A stretch of DNA of 58,389 bases, counting the filler, from Circinaria calcarea (lineage: Eukaryota), in assembly GCA_051942165.1 (NCBI GenBank). It is 9 parts of 9 records of this genome, joined end to end, with 100 filler letters (N's around TTAATTAATTAA, not from the genome) between each part and the next. Parts side by side here need not be neighbours in the genome. Positions count along the whole stretch, not along the records: positions 52,011 to 58,389 come from JAVECS010001600.1; 8 more parts are not named here. The stretch is one strand, 5' to 3'. The notes beneath the pieces were generated by a model that saw only the letters and a program-made list of their open reading frames with translations, ran no database searches and was not told where the DNA came from. Positions 1,840 through 58,389 of the stretch are shown here, piece after piece (within the stretch, counting starts at the first letter, position 1; each line of letters begins with the position of its first letter). The position numbers were made by a program, and so were the translations under genes.

Positions 1840-3766
1840 GGTGAATTATGCACGAAAAGTACTGATGCTGTAGATGACTGTTTGTGCTCGGTGTACCGCG
1901 AATAAAGAATGTTTGATTGGAATGAGTGACTTTGGTGAAAGCGTGTATATATAGATAGAGGATATTAACAAATGCTAAAGAGCGACTGTAGTTTGAAGCA
2001 CTGGAAAAGCTGCAGAGTAAGAAGGAGAGGCTGACCACAATATGTAGGCAGGCTACTTCCGTCTTATAGGGGCGTGGCGCATTTCATCTCAACCGACTTC
2101 GAGGCTCGGGGATTTCCCCTGAGAGCCACCATCTCTCATTCCGTCCAGCCGATGATCTTTTATTAGCCTCCTGTTGGAAATCATCCGTAATATCCAACGC
2201 CTCCGCCTCCTCGGCCGTCGTTTCTCGTCGTTGTGATTGGAATCGTCAACCGAAACAATTTCCTTTCGTCTGGAACCGGTAAGGCTGGTTTCTCGCTAGC
2301 CTCGAAGTCGACCGGGGTACGGGAGATTGGGGGAGAAAAGATCCGGGCGTGCCGGGGGTAATTTTAAGCGGCATCTCTCCATCAACTACAAGTACTCCGT
2401 AAAAACGAATGATACTTTATATTCCCGCTCGCATCTCTGGGGGATGGGAAGTTGGCGAACCGGTGGTGGTCAAACTCGCGTCTAAAAGGCACGCCGTCAA
2501 AGCTTCCTGCAGTCTGTTGACCTTACGGATGACAGTACGGAGTAGGTGGCCAAGGCACGTAACAAAGTACTCGTTAACACGACGAGCACCGGGTATTCCG
2601 ATAAGAGCCCTTCACCCGTCTTTGCAGCGGCTACAATAGACATGATGGAAATGGTCGACGGCCTGCGCTGCGAGGAGTGCACTCGGTATAGTTGAAAGAT
2701 TTTGCGACACGGACTATTCTTCGATGGGTCGGACTTGTTGTGGCGTGTAGTAACATGGAGTTCGGAGGCAGGCGGATTACACAGACGGGATTACATATGC
2801 AGGGACACCCGTCCATTTCACCCGTGCCCACTGTACAGAGTACACAGAAGGTCGACCGCCACGCGGATCCCGTGTCAATGGCATGGCGGGGCATACCATA
2901 CTTCTTTTCTAGAACACCTCTGCCAGCCCTGTAGATCATCCCGCCCCGAAGGTGGTGGAGCATCGGAAAGAGGGGGTTGATCAAGTGAATTAAGAAGTCA
3001 ATTAAGCTTTCCTCTATCTTTTAGATGTTCATCTCTCACAAACGCTCAAGCCCAGGCCCCACCAAAAAACAAAAAAAAAAGATAATCCATCGAGTTTAGC
3101 TAGTCGATAGTCGATAGCCGAGACCCTGTCGCATCTGGAGACGAAACACGCTGCGCAGATTAGTACCTTTGTACCTGATTTGATCTCATCTCTGTTTGTT
3201 GCTGTCGCTGGCGTCAAGCAATCATCGTGTCTGGAAGTCAACTCGATCGTCCTCTGATTGCCTCCCACTCCGCTTCAACTCCGACGAGTTCGGCGAGGAA
3301 ACCCCTTCCCTATCCTTCCCTATCCTGTACCCCTCTCTTCCCAAAATCGTCGATACAGCACCCAACGAGCCGAAGCTGTTCTGCCGACTCACAGTTGACG
3401 GAGAGACCTTCCGGTCCGACGGCTTGTTGATCCTCACTCAGTCATCATCCTTTCTACGCTTTCCGGACCATCTTTCCTCAATGCGATCCTCGCTGCCCCT
3501 CACGCGCCAAACTGCAGAACCCCAAAGGGTGCAATTGCTTGAATAGCAGCGAATACAAGGGATAGAATCAGAAAACGTGCACAAGGAGAATCAATAATTG
3601 TAAGAGGAGGAGATTTGTACGACGACTTCACAACTGGCCGACCAGATGCGCGTCTCGGGAGCTATGCAACTACTCGTTCGGTGGTGCTGCGAAGGTTCGT
3701 AGCAAGCTTTCGGGCTACCTCTGCCATAGAATACATCCTCCCCTCGGCATATACGCAGAAATCACG

Positions 3767-6421
3767 ATGCGGCGTCATCACAGGAGCAGTGCCAGTGCAG
3801 CGACGTTTGCAAAGGCCAGCAATGTCCCTATCCCTGACGCGATATCGTTGATCAGGACCTTCAACTCCGAGACTAATCCGTCCAGACCTGTTCGACCATC
3901 ACCTTTGACGGCATCGCCCATTCAAGGGATGCCGCTGGATGTGCTCGATAGAATTCGCTCCTTTCCTCTATTTCTCTCCGCGCCAGAGTCGTTTCTAGTA
4001 GCCATTGGAGCTCATCTGCGGCCTCAATCGCACTCGACTCATGACTACATCCTTACCGAAGGCGACGAAGCCAAAGCCATGTATTGGTTGGTTAGAGGGG
4101 TTGTCGCTGTCACGTCTAGGGACGGCGAAAGTACATATGCAGAACTGAAGCCTGGAGCTTTCTTCGGAGAAATTGGAATATTAATGAATATACCACGCAC
4201 TGCAACTATCGTGGCCCGGGCGAAATGCTTGTTGGTGGTTCTGAAACAGGAGGACCTGAAAAAGGTGCTGCCAAGTTTCCCAGAGGTTGAGCGAGCGATA
4301 CGAGACGAAGCCGAAGAAAGGCTTGTCATCTTGGACCGTAAGAAGAAAGAGAAATTGACTACCAACTCTCCGGATTCTAGTTTTCTGCAAGCTCGTGGAG
4401 AGAAGAGGGCCTACGGTGATGAGGATGGCGACGTTATCATGCATAATGATGGGTCTACACGATCGAATGGGACGATTAATAACAAAAAAAGAAAATCTCC
4501 ATCTCCAGGCCTCGTAAACGTAACACCATCCAGCGCGCTTGGAAGCGGAATGGTGCATGTGAGACAGCTACTCAAGGAACTGCCTCTTTTTTCCGAACTA
4601 CCACCTGAAATGCTGCATTTCCTGGGTTTGAATGCCCAACCGCGTACGTACCCACCATTCACCGATATCATCCAACAGGACTCGCAAGGGCGGGAGATAT
4701 ACTTCATCGTTCGAGGAGAGGTAGAAGTGATTGACGAAAAGGCAACCGGCCAAACTTGTAATCTACGCCTGATGCCAAGTGGAAGTGGCAGGAATACAAG
4801 GGGAGGACTCCAAGTCAAGGCCCGCTTGAGGCAGGGTCAGTACTTTGGCGAAGTCGCAAGCCTATCACTCGCTCCTCGAAGGACCGCCACGGTTCGCTCT
4901 ATTTCTTCGGTTGAATGTTTGGTGATCCCCGGGGAGGTACTGGCCGAATTCTGGACGCGATGCCCACCATTACTCAAGGAGCAAGTGGAGAAAACGGCAC
5001 GGCAGAGACTGCAGTCGAAACCGGACAACGATATTATTATGACAGACTCCACAGATTCGACTCCTCCGATAGATGAACTGGCAATTGGGGACAAAGTGCC
5101 GAAACCACCTAGAAGGCAGTCTGTTCCCATGGTAACATTGAGTTTCACCAAACCGGAAAGCCCTCATAAACCTAGTCGGATTGAGGACCGTCCGGTGATA
5201 GAACCTTTTGATCCCGACCCATTCCTCAACGCAGACCTTGACAACATCCGCTCTCGCTCCAGACGACCTTCTCTGGCACCTCCACCCCCAGACGCTCCAC
5301 CCAATGGCCATGAGAAGAGACCCGTAACAAAGTCTGCTGCACCTGCTAGGATCAAACATGCCATTACACCTCCTGACATCTACCTAACACCCAAGCGACC
5401 TAAAATTCTACTGCAGAGGCCGAGCGAAGTTAGCAACGGCATTTTTCATAACAACATCCTCATCTCGATCTTCTCACATTTAGATTTACATCATTTGATG
5501 CAACTGCGACGAGTGTCAGTTCATTGGTCCAGGCTGCTTCGGGAATCACCAGATTTACTACAACATCTTAATCTTTCCATGTACAACCGTAGGATTACGG
5601 ACTCTGCTCTAGTCAATCAAATCTGTCCTTTCGTCGGGACAAGGCCTCGCCATATCGACATAAGCAACTGCTTCCACATGACCGACGAGGGTTTCACCGC
5701 GCTTGCGGTTACCTGTGGAGGTAGAGCTATATCGTGGAAGATGAAAAGCGTCTGGGACATCACGCAGGTCGCCGTTGTCAAAATGGTCGAAACCGCCAAA
5801 AATCTGGAAGAAATCGATCTGAGCAATTGTCGGAAAGTTAGCGATACCCTTCTTGCAAGAGTGGTAGGTTGGGTGGTCGAAGGTCCATCGACACAGATCC
5901 AAACACCTCATCCTAATGGTCGACGCGGTGCTTCCCGATTTGGTATATCTCAGAATGTCCCTATCGGTACCGTCCACGGATGCCCGAAGTTGAAGAAACT
6001 CACTCTGTCGTATTGCAAGCACGTAACAGATCGGTCAATGGCTCACCTAGCAGCTTATGCGCATACCAGACTAGAAGAAATTGACTTGACGCGCTGCACC
6101 ACCATCACCGATCAAGGATTTCAGCAATGGGGTCAGAAGGCTTTCACGAGATTGAGCAAGCTTTGTTTGGCAGACTGTACATACCTGACTGATAATGCAA
6201 TCGTCTATCTGACCAATGCGGCCAAGGGGTTGCGAGATCTCGATTTGGTGAGCAAGCATCAATGTCTTCATGATGAAATACGTTTTAACATAAAACTTCC
6301 TACAGTCCTTTTGCTGCGCTCTCTCCGATACCGCCACCGAAGTCCTCGCCCTGGGCTGTCCCCATCTCACCCACCTGAATCTCTCGTTTTGTGGCTCCGC
6401 CGTCTCAGACTCCTCCCTCCG
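3767..6421 (+). CDS. Protein with two cyclic-nucleotide-binding domains, an F-box and leucine-rich repeats; 3' truncated by contig end; intron 6248-6305
   Basis: CNB motifs FFGEIGILMNIPRTATIVA and YFGEVASLSLAPRRTATVRS; F-box ILISIFSHLDLHHLMQLRRVSVHW; Cys-containing LRRs (LEEIDLSNCRKVSD, LKKLTLSYCKHVTD); GTGAGC..TACAG intron restores SFCCALSDTATEVLALGC. Confidence 0.9.
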
Positions 6422-6521
6422 NNNNNNNNNNNNNNNNNNNNNNNNNNNNNNNNNNNNNNNNNNNNTTAATTAATTAANNNNNNNNNNNNNNNNNNNNNNN
6501 NNNNNNNNNNNNNNNNNNNNN
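6422..6521. other. Artificial 100-bp contig spacer (N run with TTAATTAATTAA). Identical spacers at 12933-13032, 19435-19534, 25936-26035, 32437-32536, 38932-39031, 45423-45522 and 51911-52010
   Basis: Same linker with stops in all six frames; genes are cut at the spacers; contig lengths fall or stay equal from one to the next. Confidence 0.98.
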
Positions 6522-12932: not shown

Positions 12933-13085
12933 NNNNNNNNNNNNNNNNNNNNNNNNNNNNNNNNNNNNNNNNNNNNTTAATTAATTAANNNNNNNNNNNN
13001 NNNNNNNNNNNNNNNNNNNNNNNNNNNNNNNNCATTGTCAAGATAGCTTTGTGGTATGCTTCATTACTGATGCAGCCGCCAATAG

Positions 13086-19050: not shown

Positions 19051-22000
19051 ATCAAGAATGAATATTATTTTTCTTTTAGAAAAAAAGACGAGGCAAAGGG
19101 CAAAAAAACGAGGTCTTCTCAGGCGCCGTAAGGGTGAGGGTGAGGTTGAGGGTGAAGGTGAGGGTGAAGACGAAGGTGAAATTAACAGGTGACAAGATAG
19201 CCTGATTCGAAGCCATTCAAAATCCTGCTGCTACCTACCCAATTATCCCCCCTTTTTCCAACTCCCAGGCTTAAAGTTTGAAAGCTTATAACCACCACTC
19301 TCGCGTAGGGTACATTTTGGGGGGGCATGCTACTCTATATTTTTTTCCTTTCGACCAGACAAAACCTCCAAAACTCACAGCCCCGGAGTTATACTGTACC
19401 TCCTACCTAACCCACCCGTGCCACCAAACACCTCNNNNNNNNNNNNNNNNNNNNNNNNNNNNNNNNNNNNNNNNNNNNTTAATTAATTAANNNNNNNNNN
19501 NNNNNNNNNNNNNNNNNNNNNNNNNNNNNNNNNNATATAGTACAGACAGTTATGGATGATTCCGTTCATATCAAGATAAAGACAGTCGAATTCCGGAATC
19601 CGATTCTCAGCAATGAGCTGAGAGATGGCTGGATACCGCTCGCTCAGCCAGCGAAAGAACTTAGGAACCCCCTAAGTTTAATAACATAAATTAACGGATG
19701 CTACGGGCACGGGGGTTGTATTTCCTTACCATGTTGATCGAGTGGTCGTGTTATGCTATACCGTTATACAAAGTAAGATCCAACGAAGTTTCGGAATCCG
19801 GATGAATTCAATCTCATAGCGCGTTATGGCGTTGCACGGGCCACTCTGCCAAGATCACCAAACTTCTCATGTCCCCATCGCTGCCAAAATAACAATATGA
19901 TACCGGAGGACCCCTCACAAGGCATCATGGGCTCGTCGAATAACACCAAACTCTGAATGTATCAAGTCGAGTTTAAAAGACTCGATTTAAAGGTCGTGGG
20001 AGCGGAGCACCCCTCATACACTGATTGTCTATCATCAGTTACGCAATTTCCGGAATAATGTCATGCATCCGGGGATCTTTGTGCAACGTTTGGGAGGGGA
20101 GGTTCAGACCCACAGTTCTTTCCGTGCTATTCAGGATTCTTGTCTCCAAGACGTTACTTCTATAGCACTATACAGTGACAGTTACCTTCCTACTTGCCTA
20201 ACGTTGGCATAGAACCCTCTTGTGCTTTGTTGACGGAGCTCCTGCCTTGTAGTAGTAAGAAGCATTGCCGAAACTTTGTGACTACAGTCACTATACGCCA
20301 GCTTAGGGACGTAACAAAAAAAACATAAGCCCAATCGCGCTCCGAGCTTGTGGAAAGAACCTAGAAGGTAGCGGAGGATATCTTCAATACCACCCGTTTT
20401 TCTTCTACGAATCTGCGTGGTCTCTGTCAAGTATATAAAAGATGACCAGATTTTAGCACACTACGGTATATATGATAAAGTATCATAAATTCTTAGGATA
20501 AGCAGGTGTATTATTGAGGGTGTCCCCTGGCTTGTATGCCTGTTTTCGAGTTCGATGTTCAGCACGTAATGGATTACATCGAGCCGGGAGAAGAATCTTT
20601 GAGTGAGACTTTTACGTGTCGGTAATGTGATTTTGAGCTACCTAGCTTAATAGGAACCAAGTTTAACGGCTTCACACCGTTTTGTCTTTATGTTTATACC
20701 TGCGCCGCAAATCTCGCGCAGTACAAATTCGACGACGGGCAGGTAGACGGCGGAAAGTAAACATCTTATCTCATTTCTCGAGAGTGGCAGACGACATTAT
20801 CCTCCATGGCCGTTAATGAATATTTCCGGCACCATTAGGAGGACGCGCTAAAATTGTTCGACGAATCGAGTACGAAAACACCAACCTCGGTGCGCGGCAA
20901 TTGCTGCCGCGGTTTCATATTTTCTGCTTTCATACCACTGATCCGATAGCCACGTGGAAGAAACGGATAAACGAGTCGAGATCGACTTCTTGCCAGGGAT
21001 AGATAAGTCTATTAGGAATATATATCTGTCCTGATAAGATTCAGCACGTTTTCATCGGGGCCCGGCTAATCCGATTATGGTTTTTCTACAAGCAGAACTT
21101 ACGAGTGTACAGCCAATATAGTATCACAAGACTTTACACCGTATTAGGGCGTCGAAGGCGAACCTAGTTAAAAGAATAAGAAGAGACCCGTTCGGGGAGA
21201 AAAGCCCGTTAGAAAACGAGCTTTAACCGGCAAGAACACCAATGCGCGCGTGCCCGACATAGGAAGTAAAGATCCCGATTTGGCTGACACGGATACCGAT
21301 TTGGTTTAGGAGAACCATAACGGATTAAAAAGGCTCTTAATCGAGGTTATGCAAAGTTAGAAAACGGGTAGATAAGTGGCGAGGGCGATGGATAGGAATA
21401 AAGGTGGAACAAACGGGGAGCTACTAATATAAAACTGTTAAGCGACATGTGTGGTGGCATGTATGTATTGCTATCTGAGAGTGTAGCTATCCAAGCTGCC
21501 ATACAGGAAAACTGTCTTAAGAGGTGTGTAGAGAGAGTTGGGTATGGAACACGCATGACCCGTGTGTAACACGTGACTCTGTAAGCCCTATGCCCTTTCA
21601 ACAAAATCATAAGGAGAACTGTTCAGATGGCGGCTTAACTGTAATACTTACCTGGGAATAAACTTGGAGTGATTGTTATGATCAGTAGCAATAGCTTGCT
21701 TTGGAAATAGACTTGGAATCGTATGGCTTAATAATAATGCCTCTATAACTCTATTGCCATATTGCTTCCAAAACCTTATAAGCCGCAAAAATCTAAGAGA
21801 TGAATTGGGAGGTTTAGTTATTCTGCGTAAGAAGAAACTAGATAAGAGCAACCAATAGAAATGTCTCACTAAGATTTCAAACCTGCTAGCACAGCATAGC
21901 TCCGATGTTATCAACATTGGAGCTATGCTGCACTATGTTGTCTTAAACAGGCAATAGATCAGCATATGAGGTCATGGCGGCCACCAACAGTCCAACGTCC

Positions 22001-25935: not shown

Positions 25936-26035
25936 NNNNNNNNNNNNNNNNNNNNNNNNNNNNNNNNNNNNNNNNNNNNTTAATTAATTAANNNNNNNNN
26001 NNNNNNNNNNNNNNNNNNNNNNNNNNNNNNNNNNN

Positions 26036-31218: not shown

Positions 31219-32536
31219 ATTGATTTTTTTGTATTTTTTGACTTTTGAGGTTCTGGTCTCAATTAATTTGAAATTAAGTGTGGGTTTCCAGCGTTTTTGC
31301 CTCCGCTGCTCAGCAAGTTCCGAGTGGAACTCCCAGGCACGAGAATTCCATCGTCCTCCGAAGCTCTGCGGGTTATATCATAGTAACTACCGCTCTCGAA
31401 CAGAAACAGTGACCTTGGTTGGACGGTGTTATCGAATGCCCGTTTTTCGTTTACCCGTTTTCCCCATATCCGAGTTCGAATCACGCTAAACCTCTTCCCA
31501 AGGGGTGTGGGCTATTACGCCTCCACCCCTACCCAATCTGGAGTAAACAACATCTCGACTCGGTCGCTGTTTCAGGGTAAAGTCGGGTGAGTTTCGTAGC
31601 CACGACCTTTCGCCCTTTTTTTTTTGGTTATTATCGACTTTGTTTTCGGGGTTTTAAGCCTTCAGGGATAATTGCGCCAACAACGAGAGTTTATCATGTT
31701 ATCAAGAGCAAACAAGCTGAACTGTTTTCCAGACTCTATCGTGCCTTTGTTAACAGTTTAGGCTCCCACTATTTCACCTCCGGTAAGTACACTTTCATCA
31801 AGCGCACATCGGACTTTTATATCTCGGCTTCGTATTTGCATCCTCACCGAATGTACCACCTCAGCTTCGCACCGTGCTAAAAATGGAGACCCCCTTGCAG
31901 CATCAACGATCAGACATGCTTCCAGCAGCCGTAGGCGATCCTGCAGGAGAGACCACTAATCGCAAAACAGCATGTTTTGACACGACATCCCAGCATCTCG
32001 GGGGCTGGGTCAGCACGAATTTAGCCCATCACGAAAGAGTACCTACCAACTACTTTGTGTCCTCCCGCAACCGCCAACCTACGCATTCCCGTTTAAAAAA
32101 AAAAAAGAAGTCCTACCACCTGGAGCTAACACTTCCAACCGTATCCAGTACACAATGTATCTAACATGCAGCAAACCTCCATCTCTCTCCGTTCAATCCG
32201 ACCACACCATCCCCCACTCCCTATCTACCGCAAACTACACGGTCCTCTATCCCGGCCCCTGCCTCACCCGGCCCTGTTCACCATATCAGTATCCCAACTC
32301 CCCTCAATCCATTTAAGCCTCTCCCCTCTTGGTTTTCTTACCCAGCCCTCCCACTCCTCCAATCCCTCCTCTTCAATCTCCTATCCCCGAAACCGCAGGG
32401 GTCGGGGGTCAGGGCCAGGGGCGCAGAGTGCAGAGANNNNNNNNNNNNNNNNNNNNNNNNNNNNNNNNNNNNNNNNNNNNTTAATTAATTAANNNNNNNN
32501 NNNNNNNNNNNNNNNNNNNNNNNNNNNNNNNNNNNN

Positions 32537-34276
32537 TCTCGCTCTGATCATTCTTCAACCGTTGATTGTACGTATCAAACACCGGTCGTTCAAGAAGCAA
32601 GCCTAAGCCGGGAGCTTTAGGGATCGTATATCTGTCTGCATTGTAAGAGTCCTGGATCCTTCCTTCATGACAACCGCATCGAACCACCAGAGCCACCATG
32701 CTCACCATCTTGCGGATCTGATGCATCATGAAGCTCTGTCCGTGGACTTTGAGAGAAAGCCATTCTGTGTCGTTGATGATGATAGGCGTCCCATTCACCA
32801 CAAATGATTTGATTACTCGCTTGGCTGAAGGGTCCCTGGAAGATTTCCCAATTGTGTAGTTATGATATTTATGTGTTCCAACGTAACGAGAAAGCGTTGA
32901 GCGAACTCTAGCAAGTCGGTCTGGATGGATCCGATAAGCTTTTTTAGCTTTAACGTACCCTTCCTTAAGCTCCCTGACCCTCACATCGAGAGGTGATGTT
33001 TCCTTTATTTGTGCTGTACAAACATCTCTGTCTTTTGTGGACTGAGGGTCTGCCATTTGCGGAGACTCGACATGACCCTTGCTTATTTCCTGGTGCGCCA
33101 TGTCTTCTAGCTTAGAGCCGACGTCTAACTGCCGATCTGTGACAAGCCGTCCATTGAGTTGCTTTGATGACTTCTCTGACTGAAATTCTGCATCATTGAT
33201 GAGCTGGTCAGGCGCGCGATCGTACAACGCTCTGATGACCAAGGGCCGGATTGATAAATCAGTGAGATCAAGGATGGGTTTAATATATTGTGCTTCCGTG
33301 TCTGACCAGAATGTAGAGACATCCCGTTGTCTTTCCTCGAATCCGGTGCGATCGTTAGCCTCTTCAGCAAGCTCGACTAGCTTCTTGCCTAGGAAGCTTT
33401 CGGGATGGGGTGGCAGGAAGCAGTGAGTTGGTATTAGATATTCGTAGATCCGCGAATCACAAAGCTGGTAGGCACTGAAACTTCCGTTGGTTCTCTCCAT
33501 GCCCCATACCCGAATTTGAGGTGATAGGTTGTCATTGATTCTTTGGACAATATCCTTGTCTTCAACTATGAGCTTCATAGATATGACGTTGCCGGCCGCA
33601 TGGACGCCTTTATCCGTTCGCGCACAACGAACAAGAGAAGATTTCTTTGGGTCGTCGGCATTAGCTTTTGAGACTGCACCGGCAGCAACAAAGGCACCGA
33701 ACAGATCGCCCTCAATGGTCTTCTCATGGTGGTTGCTGTGTATGTATTTATTAGGACCAACAAAATCTGATCAAGGAGTGCTTGGTTTGTCCTATCTTAC
33801 AGTTGCATGCCTTTATATCCACTCCCTGAATATCCTATCATCACAGCTACTTTCCTCTTAGGCCTGCGCTCCTCCTTTTCAATCTCCTCCTTTGAGTATT
33901 CCACCGCGTAAATTGGTCGGTCCTCCTTCTCATTTGCAAGTTTTCGACGCTTAGCAGCCTCATGTGCAGCGTCATTGCGGGTTCTCTTATTAACTTGCAT
34001 TCGACTTGATTAGTTAGTCCGGATGATGGTAGGAGAAAAGCGGCAGCTTAGCTACTTGTAATCTGAGCGCCCCATATCAGATCTCTTATTGCGACCACCT
34101 CTTGATCCCCTACCAGCTGAATTGTCTCTCCCCCTCCCTCCCCTGTGCGGAGATTTTGCCCGCTTTCGTGGATTTGCCTCTGTGATGGATTTAGATGGGT
34201 CGTTTGCAAGAGGCGTTGGGCCCTGCTGAGGTTGCAGATCTACGCTGGGCGCCATTTCGTCCTTGGAAAAACCCAT
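32537..34276 (-). CDS. PUS1: tRNA pseudouridine synthase Pus1 (TruA family); multi-exon, 3' truncated; start at 34276 or 34255
   Basis: RRPKRKVAVMIGYSGSGYKGMQ; TIEGDLF; RCARTDKGVHAAGN (catalytic Asp); GTHKYHNYT; GQSFMMHQIRKMV; PKAPGLGLLL. Confidence 0.93.
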
Positions 34277-38908: not shown

Positions 38909-39031
38909 TCTCGCACACAATAGAATAATACNNNNNNNNNNNNNNNNNNNNNNNNNNNNNNNNNNNNNNNNNNNNTTAATTAATTAANNNNNNNNNNNNN
39001 NNNNNNNNNNNNNNNNNNNNNNNNNNNNNNN

Positions 39032-45422: not shown

Positions 45423-46211
45423 NNNNNNNNNNNNNNNNNNNNNNNNNNNNNNNNNNNNNNNNNNNNTTAATTAATTAANNNNNNNNNNNNNNNNNNNNNN
45501 NNNNNNNNNNNNNNNNNNNNNNCCTTGGCCCCGGGCCCCCTCTCCCAAACCCGCAAACCCCCTCAACAAAACAAACGATAAAAAAATGAGTAGGGAGAAA
45601 AAACAGGGTTGGTGTTATCGAGAGGTTTGGCTCGGAGCGGGATACGGAGTCAGATCAGATTGGGGAGGTTGGAGATGGGAGATTAAATATTGGGGATTGG
45701 ATATTGGGGGTTGGATATTCTTAGAGAGGTAAGAGGGGGAAACGGGAGGAGGAAGGGATAAGGGTGTTGGATTGGGGTATGGGGTGTATTTCAGTTTGGA
45801 GTGTTGTGTTCATTGTTTTTCTCCCTTCTGTTGGGAGCCAGGGGAGGAGTGTGAATGGTAGAGCACAGAGTGATGGAGAAGAAGTTTGGGAATGAGTATT
45901 GTTCCGTCTTCAGAAGGGGGTGGGGGGGGGGGACATTAGAATCTGAGTTTGATTTTAGCTGTGAGGAGGAGTGGAGTATGCTATTCTCGATTCTTTTGTA
46001 CAAGAAAATCCCTTTGACCTCGCTTTGGCAATGGAACATTATAGACAAGGCCTGATAAACAGCGCTAAGCTGGCATACGGTACTCCTATTTCCCATGATG
46101 CAGAAAGACCTGACCCCTGCCCGTTCCTTCCAAATGCAGGGTACCTCTAACTGACTTCTTTCATTGTATATGGGTATGTTATACATCCAGCGAGGGTCCC
46201 AAATTCACAAC

Positions 46212-48763
46212 TTACTTTTTATTCTTCTCGGCCAGCTGTTTCTCATGTGCTGCAATGAGCTCTTGCCTAGATATCAGGTCAGCCATTATAAGACAGCAGC
46301 AGAGATTGGACCGAATACGTACTGCAGTTGCGGAAGCGCAGCGGCGTAATGTGAGAATTCCATGGAGAACTCGCCCTTTCCTTGTGTGGCTGCTCGCAAT
46401 TGACTCGAAAAACCAAACATGCTATTGAGACTGCAGTCTGCGTAAAGAGAAAAGTCCTCTGGGCCATTCTCCGTGTCGTTGATGATCGCGTTTCTTTTGT
46501 TCAGTAGTCCAACAATGTTGCCTTGAAACTCATTCGGTGCGGTAATCGTCGTTTTCATGACCGGTTCCAGTATCTGCGGTTTGCCCTTTTTGAAAGCATT
46601 CCTAAATGCCTGCTGAGTAGCGTTCTTGAATGCCATCTCCGATGAATCGGTCATGTGGGTAGCACCATCGTTAACAACCATTCTCGTGCCAAGAACCCGA
46701 TGACCAACAAGTGGACCTTTCTCACAAGATGCTTGGAAGCCCTTGTCACAGGCGTAGAGGAATTTCTCGGAAATGGAACCACCACTGACTTGCTCCTCGA
46801 ATTCGTTGGCTTGTACGGTCCCGGTAGGTTCCATCCAACCCATGACCCTAGCATAATCACCAGCTCCACCACTCTGCTTCTTCAACAGATGATCAAAGTC
46901 TACCTTTTCGGTAATGGTTTCACGATATGCAACTTGAGGCTGCCCGGTAACACATTCGACCTTGTATTCCCGACGCATACGTTCGACATAAATGTCAAGA
47001 TGTAACTCTCCCATTCCTGAGATGATAGTTTCTTGACTCTCCGAATCGACGTGAACTCGGAAGGTAGGATCTTCGCGCTGAAAGCGAGACATGGCTTTTG
47101 AAAAGTTGGCAGTGTCTTTGTTGTTCTTTGGCTTAATCGAAAGGGATATGACAGGTTCGGGGACAAACATGGAAGTCATCGAGTATCCTAGAGTACCATC
47201 CGTAAAGGTATCTCCAGAGGCACAATCAATGCCAAACACTGCGCATATCTCCCCGGCTCCAATCTCGGTGACATCTTCCATCTCATTGGAATGCATGCGC
47301 ACGATACGAGGTACCTTGACCTTCTTATTTGTCCGTGCATTAAAGACATAGGCACTCTTCTTCAGCGAGCCCTGGTAAACCCGAATATAGGTAAGTTGAC
47401 CAAAATTGCTTTCTTCCAATTTGAAGGCTAAACCGACAAAAGGCAGGGAATTGTAGGAGACAAGCTTGACAGATGCTTCGTCTCGCCGCCTATCAAGGGC
47501 AAGGTTCTCTACCTCGGCGGGATTGGGTAAGTAGTCACAGACTCCATCCAGCATCGGTTGCACGGATTTATCTGCAAGAGCAGAGCCCATAAAGACTGGA
47601 GTAAATTTGAGTGATATGGTAGCTCTCCGGATAGCAGCCTTTAATTGTTCCATTGTGGGTGTCTGCTCTTCGAGGAAGATTTCTGCAATCTCATCATCAA
47701 CGTCTGCAAGGGTTTCGATCAACTTCTTCCTCCTCTGCTCGACAAGCGATCTCACACTCTCGGGGATCTCATCTGATTCGACAATGCTCTCACCCTTCAG
47801 CCCTTGATTGTATATGGCCTTCATCCGGATCAGATCAACCACACCCCCAAAAGTATCTTCTGACCCTATTGGCACTTGTACAGCTGCGGCATGTATCTTG
47901 AGTTTTTGGTTTATCTGGTCAATGGCCTTGAACGGATTTGCTCCCATTCGGTCCATTTTGTTGACAAAGGATATTCGAGGGACATTGTATCGTTTCATTT
48001 GCCTGTCTACTGTGATTGTCTGAGATTGCACTCCAGAGACCGCACAAAGAATCATGACTGCCCCATCCAGAACACGGAGAGCTCGCTCGACCTCAATAGT
48101 AAAATCAATGTGTCCGGGCGTGTCGATTAGATTGATGTGGTATGTCTCCTGCTTGCCATCTTCTACCTTTACCCAATCACAAAATGTAGCGGCCGACTGG
48201 ATCGTGATGCCCTTTTCTCTTTCCAAATCCATCGAGTCCATTTTTGCCCCGACGGCATCTTTTCCACGGACTTCGTGTATCGATTTGATGCGACCAGTGT
48301 AATATAAAACACGCTCCGTAGCAGTGGTTTTGCCACTATCGATGTGAGCCTGGAACTGTTAATAGAATGCCTTGATTCTCCAGGACTATTGTAGCTTACA
48401 GCTATTCCAATGTTTCGAATACGAGAAAGTCGCGCGGCCTCTTGAGGAGCTAGATTCTCGATAATGGTTTGTTGCGCAAGGTTTTCAGGTTCCGCTGCTT
48501 GCTGGAGTCTATTGCTGTTAGATTGAAGTTCTGCGAGGATCCTCAAAATAGTCAAAGACATACACAGCAGCAGCGGCGCTGGATTGGGGACGTCGGCCTT
48601 GCCATCGCCTATCTAATGGCCATCTTCGTGGTTGTAATCGCTGTGGAGCTAAACATGAAATACATCGGGGCGCATTGAGGCAGGCCGGTCGAGGGAGGCA
48701 GGATGATTGACGCAATGACCGCAGTAGAGTTCTCTGGTATTTAAGAGCAAAATTGGATTGCAT
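46212..48763 (-). CDS. MEF1: Mitochondrial elongation factor G1, 4 exons
   Basis: Arg-rich presequence; [54 protein letters not shown]; last exon [17 protein letters not shown]. Confidence 0.96.
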
Positions 48764-51279: not shown

Positions 51280-52010
51280 GATTACTGTACTACTCGACAA
51301 GGTCGGTGCAGCATCCATCTCCCATCTTTACTTCACAGGGGAATGAACCTACCCCACCTGAATTCTCACCTCCCCTTGCTTTCCCTCCCTCCCATATCCT
51401 CGTTCTCCCCACCACCCTATCTGCCTTCCAGCCTCTCCCCGAAATCTCAACATATATCAACCCCGCGGACTAGCGGATCGAGTAAACCCGAACTAGACCA
51501 TCTATGCGTGTAAGAGCATCAAGTAAAAAGTCACCAGACGCTTTCCCGCTTAGAAGCTTGTGACCGGTTCGGCGACTTTTGCGCCATTCTATACGTACCA
51601 GTAGCCGGTACATACACCAAAAAATAAAAAAGGAGAGAAAAAAAAAGGGAAAATCCCACCGTAGCAGCGCGGCTCGCTCGCTCGCTCGCTCATGTTCAAA
51701 AAAGACCCTAATTCACTTCACTTCAACAAGGGACTAGAGGCTAGAGGCTAGAGAGGCAGGCAGAGCACTCACTTCTCTGGGCCACCACCTACCATAAGCA
51801 GGGGGCGGCGGCCGGCCTTTTTTCATTACATACAAATTAGTGGAAAGTATTTTTATTTGAAAAAAAAACCCCCCGATAAACTCCTCCTGAGCCGCCCCCC
51901 CCTTTTATATNNNNNNNNNNNNNNNNNNNNNNNNNNNNNNNNNNNNNNNNNNNNTTAATTAATTAANNNNNNNNNNNNNNNNNNNNNNNNNNNNNNNNNN
52001 NNNNNNNNNN

Positions 52011-55000
52011 AGACCTGATACCAGAGCATTTCTCTGCAAATCAGCCAGAGTCCGCTGTTCGAGAAAAACGTCGGCTTCATCCAGCAGCACAACTGACTTT
52101 TGTTAGTAAGAATATTCAGTAGCTATGTGCGAGCGACGGACCGCAGCCCCAAATCTTGCCCAAATTGAGAACCGTCGCCAAGTACTAAGAAAGTTAGTAC
52201 TTGATCTCGCTTGTAAGAACTTCCTTGTTGCTTAGGCAGCGAAATGAGGCACACCTTCTCAACGGCCTCTGGATCAGTGCCGATGTCGCCGCAAGTAACA
52301 CGGTATAGGGGCTTCTCAGCAATTTCCGCAACACTGGTATATTTGGTCATGTTAAAGGCAGTACTCTTAAGTGGTACAGTCCCACTCACCTTTCAGCAGT
52401 GAGTGTTTTTCCGGTTCCAGGCCCCCTAAACTTGTCAAACCCCCAGTATTTATGCTGATAACCCTATAGATACTCACCCGTGTAACAAGACAATAAGGCC
52501 GTTTCCCTTTCCATCCATCAAATCGGTTGCTTTCTCGGCTACCAACTGGTTCGTCACCAGTGCAATAATCAGTTCCTTTGTATCGTCTTCCACAACTAGG
52601 CTTTCAAATGCTTGTTTGTTCCATATGACCGGTGATATGAATTGGACTTGAAGCTCGACTATAGAGTGTTTTAGATTAGTACTTTTTCTAACTTGGATTT
52701 TAGGGACTACTAATTCGTACCCCACTTCTTCTCCTGCATCTTGAAACCGTAAACGTGTGCAGGAAGTAACAACAGGAACTCTCCCCCTGGTGGTTCATCT
52801 TGAGCCATCTTTTCCGGACCAAGCTCGTCTCTCAATCGGCGATGGAATACTGCTGCCTTCGGATGCATTTTCCGGTAGGTTGCAATGTCAACCATATATC
52901 TTACGTCGATCTGCGACAAAAATCAGCTACTATGTAGTCCTTCTTCAGGATAAAGTTCAATAACGACGTATCCATACATTGTCTTCCTCGTGTGAGGCGT
53001 CCGATCCGTTGTAGCAAACATAGTTCTGAAACCGGCATTGCCAAAACTTCCTACCTCTATCACGGATTGACATTTCTACCTTGTGGTCGGCATATTGAAG
53101 AGGGTAGATATCTATATCTCGGACAGGCTTTACTTCGCCCGATGACGCCCCATACTGAATTGTAAGCTGTGTGCTGATTTTCTGAAAACAGCCATCAAAG
53201 TCCCATGAAGAAACTTCAACTAGACCCTCTGGTGTCGGTTCCTGTTCCTGATATGTGGAGGAATTTTTAAAAATCCACTTCGGCCAAGTCTCCAATATAT
53301 GGGCCATGTCTTGGTCTTTTGCATGGGAAATCAGGACGGTATTCGGCACAAAGAGATATTTGACATATTTAGGTGATACAAGGCCTTGAGCAAAAAGCTC
53401 ATCAACTTCATTATATTCCTTACCCAAGCTTTCATTTACGTATGTTTTAAAAAGATCGAGCTCTTTTACATGATGTTTCTTCATCTGAGCAACCTTTTGC
53501 TCAAAGAAAGCCCGATCGTGATAGTAAAACAGATATGGACCCTGAATTTCCGAGTAAATATTGAATGCTGGGTATCGTCTTTCTCTTTGCACATCTCCAT
53601 CCACGAGTTTATTTAAGGCCTCACAAAGGATACGAGACACAATTGTTAGTGATTCTCCTGACTTATAAACTTCCTGCTCAGCCCCTACAACTAGGGCATT
53701 TCCACGACCATGGGCTGCTCGCTTCTCTCGCACTCGACCGCCATGGCCGTCACATATATAGTCCTTATAGACAACAAAGGATATATCTGCATGGCGCTCG
53801 CAGTATAGTTCGACATCGCTGATCCTTAGTCGTCCCTGAAGATGAGTTTCGCGATCACCATTCGATAAGAATGAAGGTCACAAGTAACTCGGTGAAGTTC
53901 CTGCCATCTTGGAGAAGGAGGATATACTGCTAATTTTTGTAGTGTCTCATTCTCATTCTCCAGCTTTTCTATTGTTGCCAGAAGGGAGGTCACTGAGTGA
54001 AGATGACTATCATTTGGAGACATTGCAGACGGCTGTTCCTGGCAGAATTTAGTCCTATCGGCTTCCGCAGCCACCGTTTTACCATCACCTTGGCTTGGGA
54101 AACTATTTGTGAGCATGCGAACCTGCTGATCCCATGAAACGGTACCACAAGAATTATACATGTTACCTGAAGCTAAGCGTTCTGGCATGTTAGCAGTATC
54201 TCCCATATCATGGTCCTGGCCCGAGGCTCTGCGGTCTAGCATGTCAGCAGTATCTCCCATATCTTGGTCCTGGGACATCTTTTCGGAACCGTAACGTTCT
54301 TTGTCAGCTTTGGTCTTGGCCTCATATGGTTCGCGCGCATTGGCGTTAAGTGCATTCCATCTCACTCCGAGGACTTTGCCGATTTGATCTGTAGGAGAGA
54401 CATTACAGTCAGTACGGTAGACTCGGCGGAAACATGAGGTAAGGAATGATAGTACCAGAAGTCATGCCAGGGTTGTTCTCTCTTACATTGTCACGTTCTT
54501 CATGGGCGTAGAACATTGGGAGGGAAAGACCCTGACGTGGCATACCCTGAGACATAGTGTTACGGCGTTGCGAGGCTATGTTCTGCGTATATGTTTGTAT
54601 ACTCTTCTTCTGTACATGTGGTTTCTGAGCGAGAAAGGACTCCAACTGCGTTGCTGATAGAAAGCTGGGATTGATCCCAGCTTGCTTTAGAAGGGCGGTG
54701 GCTCGCGCCGATTCTCCTGGTACTTTCTGACGTTGTGGTTGCGATTGCAACACCTCCAGACGCTGACGCTCTTGCTCTTGCTCTCCCCTAGCCACAAGAA
54801 GCCTCTCCTTATTCTGCTGTTGCAGCAACATAAGTTGCATCTGATAGTCTTGGTTGGCATGGCTGCCGGCCTCAGTCGGTAGTGAACCTTCAGGTAGTGT
54901 TGGGGAAATGATTCTGCCAACAGTACGTCGTCCTATAACCTCTCTCGTTACCTGGAGATGTCAACGTGATTGTAGTACCAATCTACCTGCATTGCCCGAG

Positions 55001-55280
55001 AACATACTTCGTTTGAATCTAGATCGAATCTTTTAGAGAGCTGATTGTAGAGAGCAAAAAGTTGTTGTTCATTGACAGAATCAACGTTGGTTTGATCTTG
55101 AGAGATGGTGGATTTCACAAGGAGTTGATAATCATTTGGGATCCTTTGATCTTGGGTTGAATGAAGGGGCTGTTGTGAACCAGCATCTGTTGGTACTTGT
55201 CTCCCTCTGTAGAGTTCTTGTCGTTCTCGGTTAGACTTGGCCACTTGGCTGGCCGTATTTCCCAGTCTTTCTTCAGACAT
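52011..55280 (-). CDS. Fungal AAA+ ATPase with mosaic N-terminus (Som1/SomA-like blocks, Nhp6-like HMG box); multi-exon, 3' truncated, apparent frameshift near 53878 (possible pseudogene)
   Basis: Spliced Walker A GKGNGLIVLLHG|GPGTGKTLTAES; Walker B VVLLDEADVFLEQR..RNALVS; upstream family motifs PYLFYYH, RGRKFWQCR, RYMVD.ATYRKMH, WNKQAFESLV; exons 55280-55008, 54951-54456, 54388 onward. Confidence 0.85.
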
Positions 55281-55705
55281 TGGGCGATTTTAGATATGCA
55301 ATTGCTGTCGACCTTTCGATCCAAGAGGCCGCGTGCGAAAATTTCAGTTGGTCAACCAAGCATGTACAGATGACTCCTGTACGAAACAAGTGGTGCTTGG
55401 GACGAAGAGCGTCAATGAGCTATCGACCTTTGCAAATGTGCTTCGCGCATTCCCCCGCGTTGTCAATGTTCTTCTTGAGCTATGATACTGGATACGGGAG
55501 GTTTGGAATCGGTAACTATTGATGCCAGAATTTTGAATAGATTTACTGCGTACACAAGCCAGAGAAGATGTGGTGCCTCCCCGGCTATGCACGAGGCTGC
55601 GCCCCAGCCCTGCAGGATATCTAAGCAATAGATACGGACTTCGTGTCACACGACTATGAATTTCACCGTCTTTGGTGATACATGTAAAGCGTACATATCC
55701 TAAGA
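55281..55705. promoter_or_regulatory. Putative bidirectional promoter (425 bp) between the AAA+ ATPase and NACHT-like genes
   Basis: Inferred only from divergent start codons at 55280 (-) and 55706 (+). Confidence 0.5.
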
Positions 55706-57476
55706 ATGAACACCAGCATCACATTATCGGCAAGCAACCTTTCAACTTCGCTAGTTACTGGGTGGTACTCGGCTGCTACGAACGCAAGGTAAGTTCATAA
55801 TTACTATGCTCCCGGCTTGCTGCCAAGTGAGTAACTAAACTAGAGAAGCTCGATAGACCCCGCCCGCGAAGCTTATGATGAAGCTATCAAGCTCTTCAAT
55901 GCTGAGCTGACCGGCGATGAGTGCAAGCGAGTATGGTTGAGCGACAAAAACAGCTTGGAGGATGTGCAGAATGCCGTCCTTGACGCGAAGGAAGCATACG
56001 ATAAGAGGCCGAAGCATTCGAAAGCCCGCAAATGGCTCTTAAAGCTTTCATCCCGGGTCACACACTATGGAGCTATAATGGATATATTGGCTCAACACCA
56101 TCCGGAATACACGGCTCTAGTTTGGGGAGCTATAAAACTTCTCTTCGTGGTAAGCCGAGAGAAAATATTGCCATATCCACGAGACGGTATACTCATAGCT
56201 CTATGGCAAGGCTATGGTCAACCAAGGGGAACTGATAGCTCAGCTATCCAAAGCGCTCTCCCAAATCGCGGATGTCCTCCCACGGATTGAGATCAAGAAC
56301 TTGCTCTTTCCGACCGAGATGATGAAAAGCGCGGTGGCAACGCTCTACGCGTACATCATCAAGTTCTGTCAGAGAGCGGTCGGTTGGTACACGGAAGGAA
56401 AGCTGAAGCATGCATTAACCTCTATAACGAGGCCGTCCGCCCTACGGTTCAAAGACCTTGTGGAAGAGATTGCCGAATGTTCGCGCCGAGTAGACAACCT
56501 TGCAGTGGCCTCGGCTCAAGCAGAACAGAGAGACATGCATCTACTTCTCCAGAGGGTGGAACGAATGATCATCGGTCAAGGCGAACCATCCTTCAATTTT
56601 CTAATCGTGTTGCTGATACGCCCCACAGCAAATCAAGGCATTAACCTTGCAAATCATCTCGATACGAATCGAAGAGTATGCGAAATACAGTTTTCTCAAA
56701 TACTCACATTTGCCGCCTCAACGACACTGCTAGATCCGGAAGAAAGCTTTCGTTATTCCATAGCGATGAGCAACCGGCGTCGGTCTCGAAGGATCAACGA
56801 CAACGATCCCATCTGGAAGTCACCGAAGATGCAGGCATGGTCATCTGCAAGATGCTCATCCCTGACGATGATTAACGGGAACTCTGCCACTCGTCACCAG
56901 GCTAAGGACTTTGCTGCAGATATGGTGCACCTTTTACGCACGACGAATAATCCTACAGTTTGGGTCCTCAATGCGTCGCGAGAGATCTCAAGTACTGCAC
57001 CAACAACTATAGATGTGCTCAAACAAATTACATTGCAAGTTTTGAAGATCAACTCGACCCTCCTCGATGAGCGATCCCTGTCTTTGAACGCTGCAAGATT
57101 TCAGAGCGCATGTTCAGAATCAGACTGGTTTAACTTGCTTGGTTCAGCTCTTACAGGTCTTCCGTTAATCTACATTGTCATTGACATTGAGACTGTAACA
57201 TCCAAACTGCCATACAACTTTTCCTGGTTAGCGGCATTCTACACACTATTTGAAGACCTTTCAAAAAGGAACATTTCTACACCGATCAAGGTTATATTAA
57301 TTAGCTATGGCGCTGTACCCTTGGTATTCAGCGGATTCTCGTCAGAGAAAGTGGATGAATGCATTATCAATATCGCGAAGAAGCCTCGTTCTCGTCGCTC
57401 CGCTCGTGTTGCAATTCGAAAGCGAGGAGTAGGAGCATTGCGGCCTCTACTTATTGATACTACAGTCTCGGCGTAG
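55706..57476 (+). CDS. NACHT-N-terminal helical domain plus degenerate NACHT-like domain, no C-terminal repeats; introns 55789-~55848, 56150-56210 and probably 56575-56628
   Basis: RVTHYGAIMDILAQHHPEYTALVWGAIKLLF..LSQIADVLPR..LYAYIIKF is typical of fungal NLR N-terminal domains; then AWSS..SSLTMING, IYIVID and IKVILISY without a GxxGxGKS/T loop. First acceptor site is uncertain. Confidence 0.78.
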
Positions 57477-58389
57477 GGTCACTCGAATTTTATTGTGGAC
57501 CGAAATAGGTATCCGAGCGCGGTACCTAGAGGACGGTTCCTTCTTTTGGGCACGGCTTGTTTCCGTCGACTACGAGATCAGTCTGGTTAGTTACCAACCT
57601 AATATTACTCCTAGAAAAATTTCACACTAAACGAGCCACAGTCATACTCTCAGACCTTGCCGGGATCCGAAGGCACCATCTTCTCAATGACTTTTCCCAT
57701 CCGCATCCTGCCGCCTTCCGTCACTCATTCATCTTTCCAAGGAATCCGTCCGAAGTAGCCTCATTCTCCTAATAGACCCACTCCACCTCGTATTAGTGAA
57801 TCATATCATGTTGCATGTTCAGCCTCACCAACGGGTTCGGCGTCCTCTCTCCATCAGTCTTGGATATATATTGCTGCGTCAAGTCAGTCTTGAAATCGTT
57901 CGACCTGGACCCATGATCGATAACTCTATAATCCTGGCAGTGCTTTCGTGGAAGGCTCTTGGCATAAACATTGAATTACGACTTGATGCTATCACGTCTT
58001 TTGGCCATAATGACCTGCGTGAGAAGTTACGTCGGGTTTGTGAAAATGCAAGAGAAAGTAAGGGGTTTTTTGCATGAGAAATATACAGGATTATGAAATA
58101 GGGCCGTAGGAGTATAATAAGAACAGGTCTTCTCCGCAGGTTTAGCCAGATTGAAACTAAAGACTTTGTCGATGCTCGTCGGGGCCATTCGCCTTTTTAC
58201 TCGAGGAGAAATCCTCATACCCTGAGACGATCTAACTATGAGGCCTAGGTCGGAGCCTCTCTGTCCTTCTATCCCCGTGCATATCCCTACAGCCTGTGGA
58301 AAACTCCCATTGTCCCGGGCATCTATACCTCGAAAGTTATGACCTCGCATCTCACCCCTCCCCCGACCCAAAAAAACCCCTCCTTCCCC

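Follow-up and report, generated by a model that had tools for sequence, protein, structure and literature searches.

SomA, Som1, and Flo8 are LUFS-domain transcription regulators of fungi. The ATPases of Pezizomycotina that combine DUF7025 with AAA and AAA_lid_13 domains are often annotated as "related to TOB3", and classical AAA+ proteins choose their partners or substrates by means of the N-domain. Here we describe a gene of Circinaria calcarea that joins these subjects: it is predicted to encode a DUF7025 ATPase whose N-terminal extension holds a piece of SomA and the HMG box of another regulator, Nhp6. The gene lies in a stretch of 58,389 nt from assembly GCA_051942165.1 ("the window"), on 52011-58389, the last piece of the window, which is a 6379-nt contig of a C. 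calcarea metagenome-assembled genome (MAG).

For both donors, some functional determinants have been described. According to a passage of PMC4631450, the nuclear localisation signal that is conserved in SomA/Som1 of filamentous fungi is PSPSKRPRLE. For yeast Nhp6A, an excerpt of PMC8421229 reports that Met29 and Phe48 insert into the base stack and that, without its basic N-terminal arm, the protein forms no DNA complexes that are stable to electrophoresis. For DUF7025, exact-string literature searching found no paper.

The SomA and NHP6 fragments in the ATPase extension

Translation, profiles, and alignments identify the gene as a chimeric member of the large Pezizomycotina family with DUF7025, AAA, and AAA_lid_13 domains. 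An earlier note on this DNA had described an ATPase whose N-terminus is a mosaic of three regulator-like segments. All three segments were recovered at the positions given there, on the minus strand, and both ATPase domains are present (DUF7025 at 31.4 bits against a cut-off of 27, and AAA, PF00004, at 28.5 bits against 21.2 in the public gene model, P0001). The extension has an older part, which these comparisons resolve into a box with the sequence STISQDQT followed by a helix that we term motif 1, and a captured part, which they resolve into two internal gene fragments, joined head to tail and in frame. The SomA fragment (about 210 nt) is the block that lies between the nuclear localisation signal and SomA's own motif 1; we term it block 2. 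The NHP6 fragment (about 250 nt, genomic) is the HMG box without its basic arm, with the NHP6 phase-1 intron. Exon 2 begins at 54951, and motif 1, block 2, and the first half of the HMG box lie in a single open frame. Downstream of a pair of 54-nt units that follows the HMG box come a linker, DUF7025, and the start of the AAA domain with Walker A and B, and the contig end at 52011 cuts the gene inside the AAA domain. In the list below, P0158 is the nearest full-length relative (from Pleopsidium flavum), P0281 is a SomA-like protein of the same MAG, and P0008 is the sister sequence of the window protein.

52011..55280, minus strand: DUF7025-AAA ATPase gene, from the ATG at 55280 to the contig end (annotated as hypothetical protein Q9187_006162, partial; P0001)
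55008..55280, minus strand: exon 1, 91 codons, homologous to P0158 residues 44-107, with the STISQDQT box at 55112-55089
54952..55007, minus strand: intron 1, 56 nt, GTATGT...CAG, phase 0 (shortest in-frame acceptor; agrees with P0001)
54775..54867, minus strand: motif 1, a 31-residue helix of the widespread DYQMQLMLLEQQNKKRL type (motif profile, 50 bits)
54529..54738, minus strand: block 2, a conserved helical block of SomA/Som1 (P0281 residues 289-357, by alignment)
54456..54540, minus strand: first half of the HMG box (helix 1), from PRQG (Nhp6A residues 14-47)
54389..54455, minus strand: intron 2, 67 nt, phase 1, GTACTA...TACTGAC...CAG, in the codon matching Gly49 of Nhp6A
54279..54388, minus strand: second half of the HMG box (helices 2 and 3), which starts exon 3 (Nhp6A residues 50-86)
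53854..53888, minus strand: frame break, with 11 residues (DQETQDVFLDV) missing in comparison with P0008
52960..53877, minus strand: open frame with the DUF7025 domain of the ATPase core (31.4 bits)
52426-52404, minus strand: Walker A (GPGTGKT), read from the sequence
52093-52070, minus strand: Walker B (LLDEAD), read from the sequence

Block 2 is 64% identical to P0281 over 81 residues (E 4e-27), which bears out the proposal that this segment is of the SomA type. P0281 has 771 residues and the locus tag Q9187_006461. We take it to be the SomA/Som1 orthologue because it aligns with LisH-bearing 800-residue proteins (50-57% identity; the LisH match is above the cut-off in P0039 and below it in P0072) and carries a signal like PSPSKRPRLE (PSPSKRARLD, at residue 259). 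A search of longer proteins gave four with block 2 and then motif 1 about 60 residues on, and P0281 is in the 90% cluster of one of these four.

To compare identities, we aligned exon-2 residues 72-152 to P0281 residues 289-366 and used 57 core columns. Over these columns, identity to the window is 74% for P0281, 63% for P0008, 39% for P0105 (a remote DUF7025 protein, discussed below), and at most 67% for other SomA-like proteins; between P0008 and P0281 it is 72%. Since the window is closer to P0281 than to its own sister, block 2 probably came from the SomA of the Circinaria lineage. The window and P0008 copies are each closer to the slowly evolving native SomA than to each other, and a single origin from a Circinaria-lineage SomA before the two split would give the pattern seen. 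At 18 columns that are conserved among 11 SomA-like proteins, the window keeps 17 and P0008 keeps 16.

The rest of SomA is missing. In SomA, the nuclear localisation signal precedes block 2 by about 45 residues; it is not part of the copied piece (the pattern PSPSKR.R is absent from the window protein). LisH/LUFS is absent too, with no LisH match in the exon translations or in P0001. The gene has SomA pieces but does not appear to be a SomA.

An AlphaFold 2 model of exon 2 (13-row alignment, mean predicted local distance difference test score, or pLDDT, of 61) shows block 2 as a small helical unit (pLDDT 79-87) and a helix at residues 31-64, with pLDDT, averaged by block, of 64-71 for motif 1 and 54 beyond residue 50. 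A fold assignment for block 2 was dropped: the best match (3n6s_A, Z 6.4, 48 aligned residues, root-mean-square deviation 2.0) is in the chance range for helical bundles. Searching the ESM Atlas with exon 2 gave a best score of 0.76, which is under the level of a lead.

Block 2 is also found in other contexts. P0010 (174 amino acids) consists of three tandem block-2-like units and lacks motif 1; in P0120, block 2 adjoins a Zn2Cys6 domain; and the ankyrin protein P0006 has a partial block 2 and two motif-1 units. Because of these contexts, we regard block 2 as a mobile module in its own right.

The third segment had been compared to the HMG box of Nhp6, and the joined halves (54540-54456 and 54388-54279) give a single match that spans, from end to end, the profile built on 82 distinct native sequences of the Nhp6 type (positions 1-66, 85.9 bits). 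The second half alone reaches Pfam HMG_box (PF00505, 27.4 bits against 25.4, positions 30-64 of 69). Among solved structures, yeast Nhp6A (1cg7) is the best match to the second half (residues 50-86, E 3.6e-7) and the only meaningful match to the first half (residues 14-47, E 0.022). The halves tile Nhp6A without an indel, and no residue is missing across intron 2. Both HMG halves of P0008 also match Nhp6A; a comparison of the P0008 HMG region with shorter proteins gave four candidates, none of them significant.

The intron within the HMG box is informative about how the piece was copied. With a degenerate DNA pattern for AYMFFAN[DE], we collected 114 native NHP6-like loci from a metagenome collection. 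A phase-1 intron lies in the Gly codon after the conserved Phe in 62 of these (45 loci lack it, 5 are not Nhp6-like, and 2 run off the contig), and the window intron at 54455-54389 is in the same codon and phase. The question raised earlier, whether this intron matches a native NHP6 position, is thus answered with a match, and the HMG piece was therefore copied as genomic DNA rather than as cDNA. The eight natives that are most similar to the window all have the intron (identity of 39-41/62 for the first seven and 38/62 for the eighth), and GTAC-type donors like the window's are found in at least 10 of the 62 intron-bearing loci. The sequence of intron 2 is not above chance in its similarity to native NHP6 introns (best 0.69; shuffle mean 0.65, maximum 0.70), which is unsurprising, since the natives were sampled from species other than the donor. 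More generally, this intron is polymorphic among the fungal loci of the metagenome collection, with lengths of 40-94 nt (median 53).

The junction between the fragments can be placed closely. Before the box, natives have NAPKRGLS and the window has MSQGMPRQGLS, where all residues ahead of PRQG still belong to the SomA match. PRQG itself overlaps the end of the SomA match by four residues, the SomA piece abuts the HMG box at Nhp6A position 21-24, and DNA similarity to native NHP6-like loci starts at 54531. The basic arm of Nhp6 (Nhp6A residues 8-16) is absent: NTMSQGMPRQG stands in place of KKKDPNAPKRA. We propose that both pieces were copied at the DNA level and not via mRNA, by ectopic repair, template switching, or gene conversion; that the SomA donor was the SomA of the Circinaria lineage; and that the captures predate the split from P0008.

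A chimeric sequence on a short contig might be an artefact: the assembly of a fragmented MAG may have created a chimera, or two separate genes may have been merged in error in the gene model. In favour of this, the MAG contig has a length of only 6379 nt, three splices of the public gene model are doubtful, and the frame is broken between the module and the core. However, a single uninterrupted exon holds motif 1, block 2, and the first half of the HMG box, and P0105 joins the box, motif 1, and block 2 to DUF7025. P0008 (639 residues, from a different contig of 3128 nt) extends from motif 1 through block 2 and the HMG box to the linker and DUF7025 in one open frame, which starts inside motif 1, ends with DUF7025, and includes a 22-residue read-through of the NHP6-type intron. 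Because P0008 has the same order on another contig, the fusion is very probably real, and we consider an artefact highly improbable. In a phylogeny (IQ-TREE, 42 rows), P0008, the window protein, and P0161 group together with support of 99 (Shimodaira-Hasegawa-like approximate likelihood ratio test). No module was found in the 158 residues that precede the core of P0161, a prediction at the level of open reading frames that may miss upstream exons.

The older part of the extension and its family

Motif 1 (54867-54775) encodes GSHANQDYQMQLMLLQQQNKERLLVARGEQE, of the type DYQMQLMLL.QQNK.RL. It scores 50 bits (independent E-value, or i-E, of 9e-16) against a profile built from the instances in other proteins, and its region is 67% identical to residues 393-436 of P0281. 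Outside the N-terminus, no stretch of SomA orthologues is more invariant than motif 1. The profile, from 145 instances in 114 of the 466 proteins given below, has as its consensus the 31-residue unit GNHALQDYQMQLMLLEQQNKKRLLMARQEQD.

The motif is widespread. A HMMER search of 1.84 billion representatives gave 466 proteins at E ≤ 0.001, and for most of these the match lies in the motif-1 region. A single protein can have as many as 9 matched stretches (P0081; there are 8 in P0009 of Halenospora varia). Of the best 83 matches, 75 have no Pfam family at E ≤ 1e-5, and the others include an Rsc7/Swp82-type subunit, a GATA factor, a LisH protein, ankyrin proteins, and an NBR1-like protein. No Pfam family covers motif 1 in any motif-bearing protein that was scanned, and exact-substring literature searching found no paper for it.

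Within the ATPase family, 118 other DUF7025 ATPases were compared, and the motif-1 profile matches the N-terminal extension in 23 of them (i-E ≤ 1e-4). The collinearity of P0158 with the window extends across exon 1 and a degenerate motif 1 (window motif 1 is collinear with P0158 residues 168-191), and P0158 has neither block 2 nor the HMG box. Because motif 1 is found in hundreds of proteins, in these 23 family members, and in P0158, it reads as an older feature of the ATPase family and not as a mark of SomA. The suggestion that the N-terminus holds captured fragments of host regulators therefore stands for the SomA and Nhp6 segments, but not for motif 1, which had been counted as a second SomA piece. 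A supposed weaker echo of motif 1 in exon 1 did not hold up either: with filters off and at a domain E of 10, the motif-1 profile finds nothing in exon 1, and the stretch in question is the STISQDQT box of the family. The box is present in 5 of 118 relatives (P0158, P0162, P0163, P0171, and P0262) and in P0105.

The order of the elements differs from that of SomA, as had been supposed. Block 2 precedes motif 1 in 40 of the 42 compared proteins with both elements, and the reverse is found only in the window protein and in P0105, both of which are DUF7025 ATPases. P0105 has 734 residues and lacks the HMG box. Its N-terminus is collinear with the window from box to motif 1 to block 2 (34% identity over 202 residues, E 4e-14), and its core is remote (28% identity to the window, in a different, well-supported clade of the same phylogeny). 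An intermediate with the order motif 1, block 2, motif 1 was considered and dropped: the two motif-1 units of P0204 are a tandem duplication without block 2 between them.

A different SomA-like fragment was seen in the same ATPase clade. Residues 1-44 of P0237, an ATPase paralogue from P. flavum, align to the part of SomA between block 2 and motif 1 (49% identity, E 6e-6). P0237 begins at the start of a 2474-nt contig, and more may lie upstream.

The ATPase core family comprises 1140 proteins at E ≤ 1e-10 among 7999 candidates that were scored. The DUF7025 region of the window is 40% identical to that of P0158, and the frame at 52960-53877 is 76% identical to P0008 and 64% to P0161. N-terminal extensions vary across the family. 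P0162 and P0171, one of which is from Botrytis cinerea, have a paired amphipathic helix (PAH) domain (residues 29-73 and 30-72, respectively) upstream of the STISQDQT box, and the PAH of P0171 most resembles the first PAH of Sin3/Pst1 and, among solved structures, PAH1 of Sin3A/B. One family member has ULD_2 and another has a C-terminal GATA finger.

The PAH1-binding motif, in an excerpt of PMC1557813, is FXXLVXLL/LXXLL, of which the last two leucines are critical. The core of motif 1 (Y-Q-M-Q-L-M-L-L) has an aromatic residue and two leucines at the spacing of this motif, with Gln in place of its first Leu; motif 1 as a ligand of the PAH1 type is only a lead. An extended version of this idea is that the DUF7025 AAA ATPases are motors that are wired to hubs of transcription regulators, that GNHALQDYQMQLMLLEQQNKKRLLMARQEQD is a docking helix of the Sin3-PAH1 type, and that the Circinaria copy mimics SomA. 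The N-terminal extensions may then have repeatedly taken up pieces of regulators (Sin3 PAH1, the SomA block, the SomA inter-block stretch, and the Nhp6 HMG box), and the ATPases may remodel or guard complexes that are built on GNHALQDYQMQLMLLEQQNKKRLLMARQEQD, which is common to SomA, the Rsc7-like subunit, and GATA factors. As a whole, we consider this rather improbable.

State of the gene and possible roles of the extension

We give a probability of roughly 55% to the reading that the gene is a lineage-specific chimeric ATPase in which SomA and NHP6 pieces, copied as DNA, form part of an extension that selects partners, in a copy that is now damaged. The extension would act as a partner-selecting N-domain that mimics part of SomA; we infer this part of the reading, the mechanism. 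By analogy with the N-domains of AAA+ proteins, the extension might steer the motor to transcription-regulator complexes, although we hold this with low confidence. Since block 2 keeps the positions that are conserved in SomA, it is predicted to bind whatever SomA's block binds, by mimicry or in competition. Motif 1 may be a docking helix that is common to many nuclear regulators. The HMG box would add little or would have a new role, because determinants of stable DNA binding are lost and the native constraint seems to be gone.

The changes within the HMG box bear on that last point. Phe48 of Nhp6A is invariant in the 82 distinct natives and is Ser in both the window and P0008; Met29 persists in the window and has been replaced by Lys in P0008; and Tyr28 is Pro in the window. 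Of the 62 columns, 33 are at least 95% conserved among the natives (7 of these were fixed by our search pattern). The window keeps 22 of the 33 and P0008 keeps 24, and six of the changed columns (11 in the window, 9 in P0008) are common to both, four with the same replacement and two with different ones. The captured box may well evolve without the constraint on native boxes, but our confidence in this is low.

Alternatively, the HMG box might bind DNA and bring the ATPase to chromatin, with the SomA piece aiding nuclear import. Nhp6A is the closest solved structure, and the box keeps the fold-determining residues and most of the basic ones, including F4, R10, V13, R14, K27, L29, and W33, and also L36, Y44, K47, K52, R54, Y55, and K59 (numbered by columns of the native alignment). 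Sin3 PAH1-like or GATA domains in other family members would also suit a nuclear target. However, the arm without which Nhp6A is reported to form no stable DNA complexes (PMC8421229, as excerpted above) is absent, the DNA-inserting Phe48 is Ser in both copies and Met29 is Lys in P0008, and the window protein lacks the SomA signal PSPSKR.R. We consider targeting of this kind quite unlikely.

Several observations weigh against the partner-selecting reading that we prefer. First, the window copy is broken in the conserved core: the upstream frame runs into a stop at 53826-53828 after the frame break, and the missing stretch belongs to a core element, HR[VI]xC...FLDxP...HL[RQ]G, whose strict pattern is found in 16 of 118 relatives from distant genera. 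The copy is probably a pseudogene, or else there is an assembly error at the locus. Second, the window and P0008 are 77% identical in DUF7025, 75% in the HMG box, and 67% in block 2, compared with 73% in the linker, and such similar divergence in domains and linker fits weak constraint throughout. Third, differences between the two copies are hardly concentrated away from conserved columns. In block 2, they affect 3 of 18 conserved and 17 of 42 other columns (Fisher P = 0.084), so that a depletion at conserved columns is only suggestive, and in the HMG box they affect 9 of 33 conserved and 6 of 29 other columns (Fisher P = 0.57). Fourth, the HMG box is found only in P0001 and P0008 among 120 listed family proteins. 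Fifth, the order of box, motif 1, and block 2 may be old in the family, with the block of the Circinaria lineage overwritten by gene conversion from SomA; two captures of block 2, one in the window lineage and one in that of P0105, remain as the alternative. Sixth, the choice between the splice donors at 54455 and 54545, and the continuity of the transcript, are inferred from DNA only.

Many of these observations would be expected if the captured pieces were neutral debris, that is, filler from repair accidents in a fast-evolving and partly pseudogenised family, without a function of their own. The frame-breaking deletion in the conserved core, the similar divergence of linker and domains from P0008, the changes at 11 (window) and 9 (P0008) of the 33 Nhp6-conserved columns without depletion there, and the P value of only 0.084 for block 2 all point this way. 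But P0008 is open for 639 residues across the module and the core; neither junction breaks the frame; the donor, a branch-point-like TACTGAC, and the acceptor are all preserved in the intron; and block 2 retains 17/18 and 16/18 of the SomA-conserved positions in the two copies, although they differ from each other at 33% of positions. We think that neutral debris is unlikely, yet deserves to be taken seriously.

The earlier note had also raised the possibility of integrated decoys: the SomA and Nhp6 copies would be baits that report an attack to an immune-like ATPase. The extension is modular across the family (PAH1-like, ULD_2, and HMG domains), and the HMG box keeps its fold residues without the determinants of DNA binding, as a bait might. 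A neighbouring gene has DUF7708 and a weak match to the Goodbye domain, which is a type of N-terminal domain in fungal STAND proteins (signal transduction ATPases with numerous domains). Integrated decoys have been proposed for fungal NOD-like receptors (NLRs), according to an excerpt of PMC12258605. On the other hand, the motor is a classical AAA (PF00004) and not a STAND NTPase of the NACHT or NB-ARC type, full-length relatives have no sensor repeats, the HMG box is found in just two sequences, and the window copy is broken. Also, we know of no effector that targets SomA or Nhp6. A decoy role therefore seems very unlikely to us.

Whatever its role, the gene is a clean and datable case of a new coding exon made from two short internal fragments of housekeeping regulators, and the donor intron that is retained in one of the fragments shows that this fragment was copied as DNA. 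In addition, it offers a first way into a very large family of fungal ATPases that is still uncharacterised and whose variable N-terminal extensions carry pieces of nuclear regulators. If block 2 or the motif-1 helix can be tied to a partner (PtaB/Mfg1 or Sin3 PAH1), then both the ATPase family and the conserved, unexplained middle region of SomA/Som1 would become testable.

The gene model that we use differs from the public one, P0001 (821 residues, partial), at three places. First, P0001 splices at the donor at 54545, so that HMG helix 1 (54456-54545) is lost; against the native Nhp6 profile, the splice at 54455 gives 85.9 bits over positions 1-66 and P0001 gives 46 bits over positions 26-66 only. 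Both donors are in phase, so there may be alternative splicing at the HMG box. Second, P0001 crosses the frame break by a weak 53-nt GTTACT...CAG "intron" (53888-53836), which removes conserved residues. Third, P0001 omits 34 residues, VEMSIRDRGRKFWQCRFQNYVCYNGSDASHEEDN (52960-53061), that are kept in P0008. The alignment of P0158 to the window DNA (tblastn) extends to 52016. The remaining features of the contig are:

54544..54545, minus strand: alternative phase-1 donor of the public annotation, G|GTATGC, which would skip the first half of the HMG box
54165..54272, minus strand: two tandem 54-nt units, right after the HMG box, encoding QDQDMGDTADMLDRRASG and QDHDMGDTANMPERLASG (45/54 identical)
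55844..57476, plus strand: divergent neighbour gene with DUF7708, outside the chimera (62 and 129.8 bits, in two overlapping frames)

The pair of 54-nt units is also present in P0008, so the duplication would predate the split of the two copies. Tandem Repeats Finder reported no repeat array on the contig and did not report the pair at 54165-54272. The composition profile of the contig shows no AT-rich tract of the kind left by repeat-induced point mutation (GC 0.40-0.51).

In the neighbouring gene, the DUF7708 profile is split, with positions 1-43 in 55844-56290 and positions 41-146 in 56199-57476, which could reflect either an intron or a frameshift. This is also the gene with the weak Goodbye-domain match. 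The window as a whole consists of nine pieces of about 6.4 kb that are joined by linkers of the form N44-TTAATTAATTAA-N44 (at 6422-6521, 12933-13032, 19435-19534, 25936-26035, 32437-32536, 38932-39031, 45423-45522, and 51911-52010), and adjacent pieces are not genome neighbours. Unrelated genes in the other pieces include those for a cyclic-nucleotide-binding (cNMP-binding) protein (3566-6421), elongation factor G (EF-G; 46286-48358), and a pseudouridine synthase (32537-33770). The other eight pieces contain no paralogue of the ATPase gene or of SomA.

Comparison with known systems

Five known systems bear comparison with this locus. The first is the integrated domain of NLRs, in plants and in the proposed NLRs of Sordariales (PMC12258605, in the excerpt cited above). 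As there, a copy of a host regulator is placed on an NTPase with a variable N-terminus, but the window ATPase belongs to another class of NTPase and lacks sensor repeats, so the resemblance is of idea only. The second is Sin3 PAH1 with its helical ligands. Two family members have a PAH1-like domain, and the core of motif 1 has the spacing of the motif in the excerpt of PMC1557813. In contrast to that motif, whose first position is Leu, motif 1 has Gln there.

The third is SomA/Som1/Flo8. Block 2 of the window is 74% identical to P0281 over the core columns, and motif 1 is present in both. The window protein differs in that it has no LisH/LUFS and no PSPSKR.R, in that its elements are in reversed order, and in that it corresponds to only about 70 of the roughly 770 residues of SomA. 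The fourth is Nhp6 (Nhp6A, PDB 1cg7/1j5n). The window box is collinear with residues 14-86 without an indel and shares the intron position and phase of many natives. It differs as a fragment within another gene that has lost the arm, has Ser for Phe48 and Pro for Tyr28, and is changed at 11 of 33 near-invariant positions.

Finally, there are the DUF7025-AAA-AAA_lid_13 ATPases themselves. The window protein and P0008 are alone among the 120 listed members in having an HMG box, and the window copy is frame-broken and cut. Its core is nevertheless a clear member of the family, and the STISQDQT box and motif 1 are common to a subset of that family.

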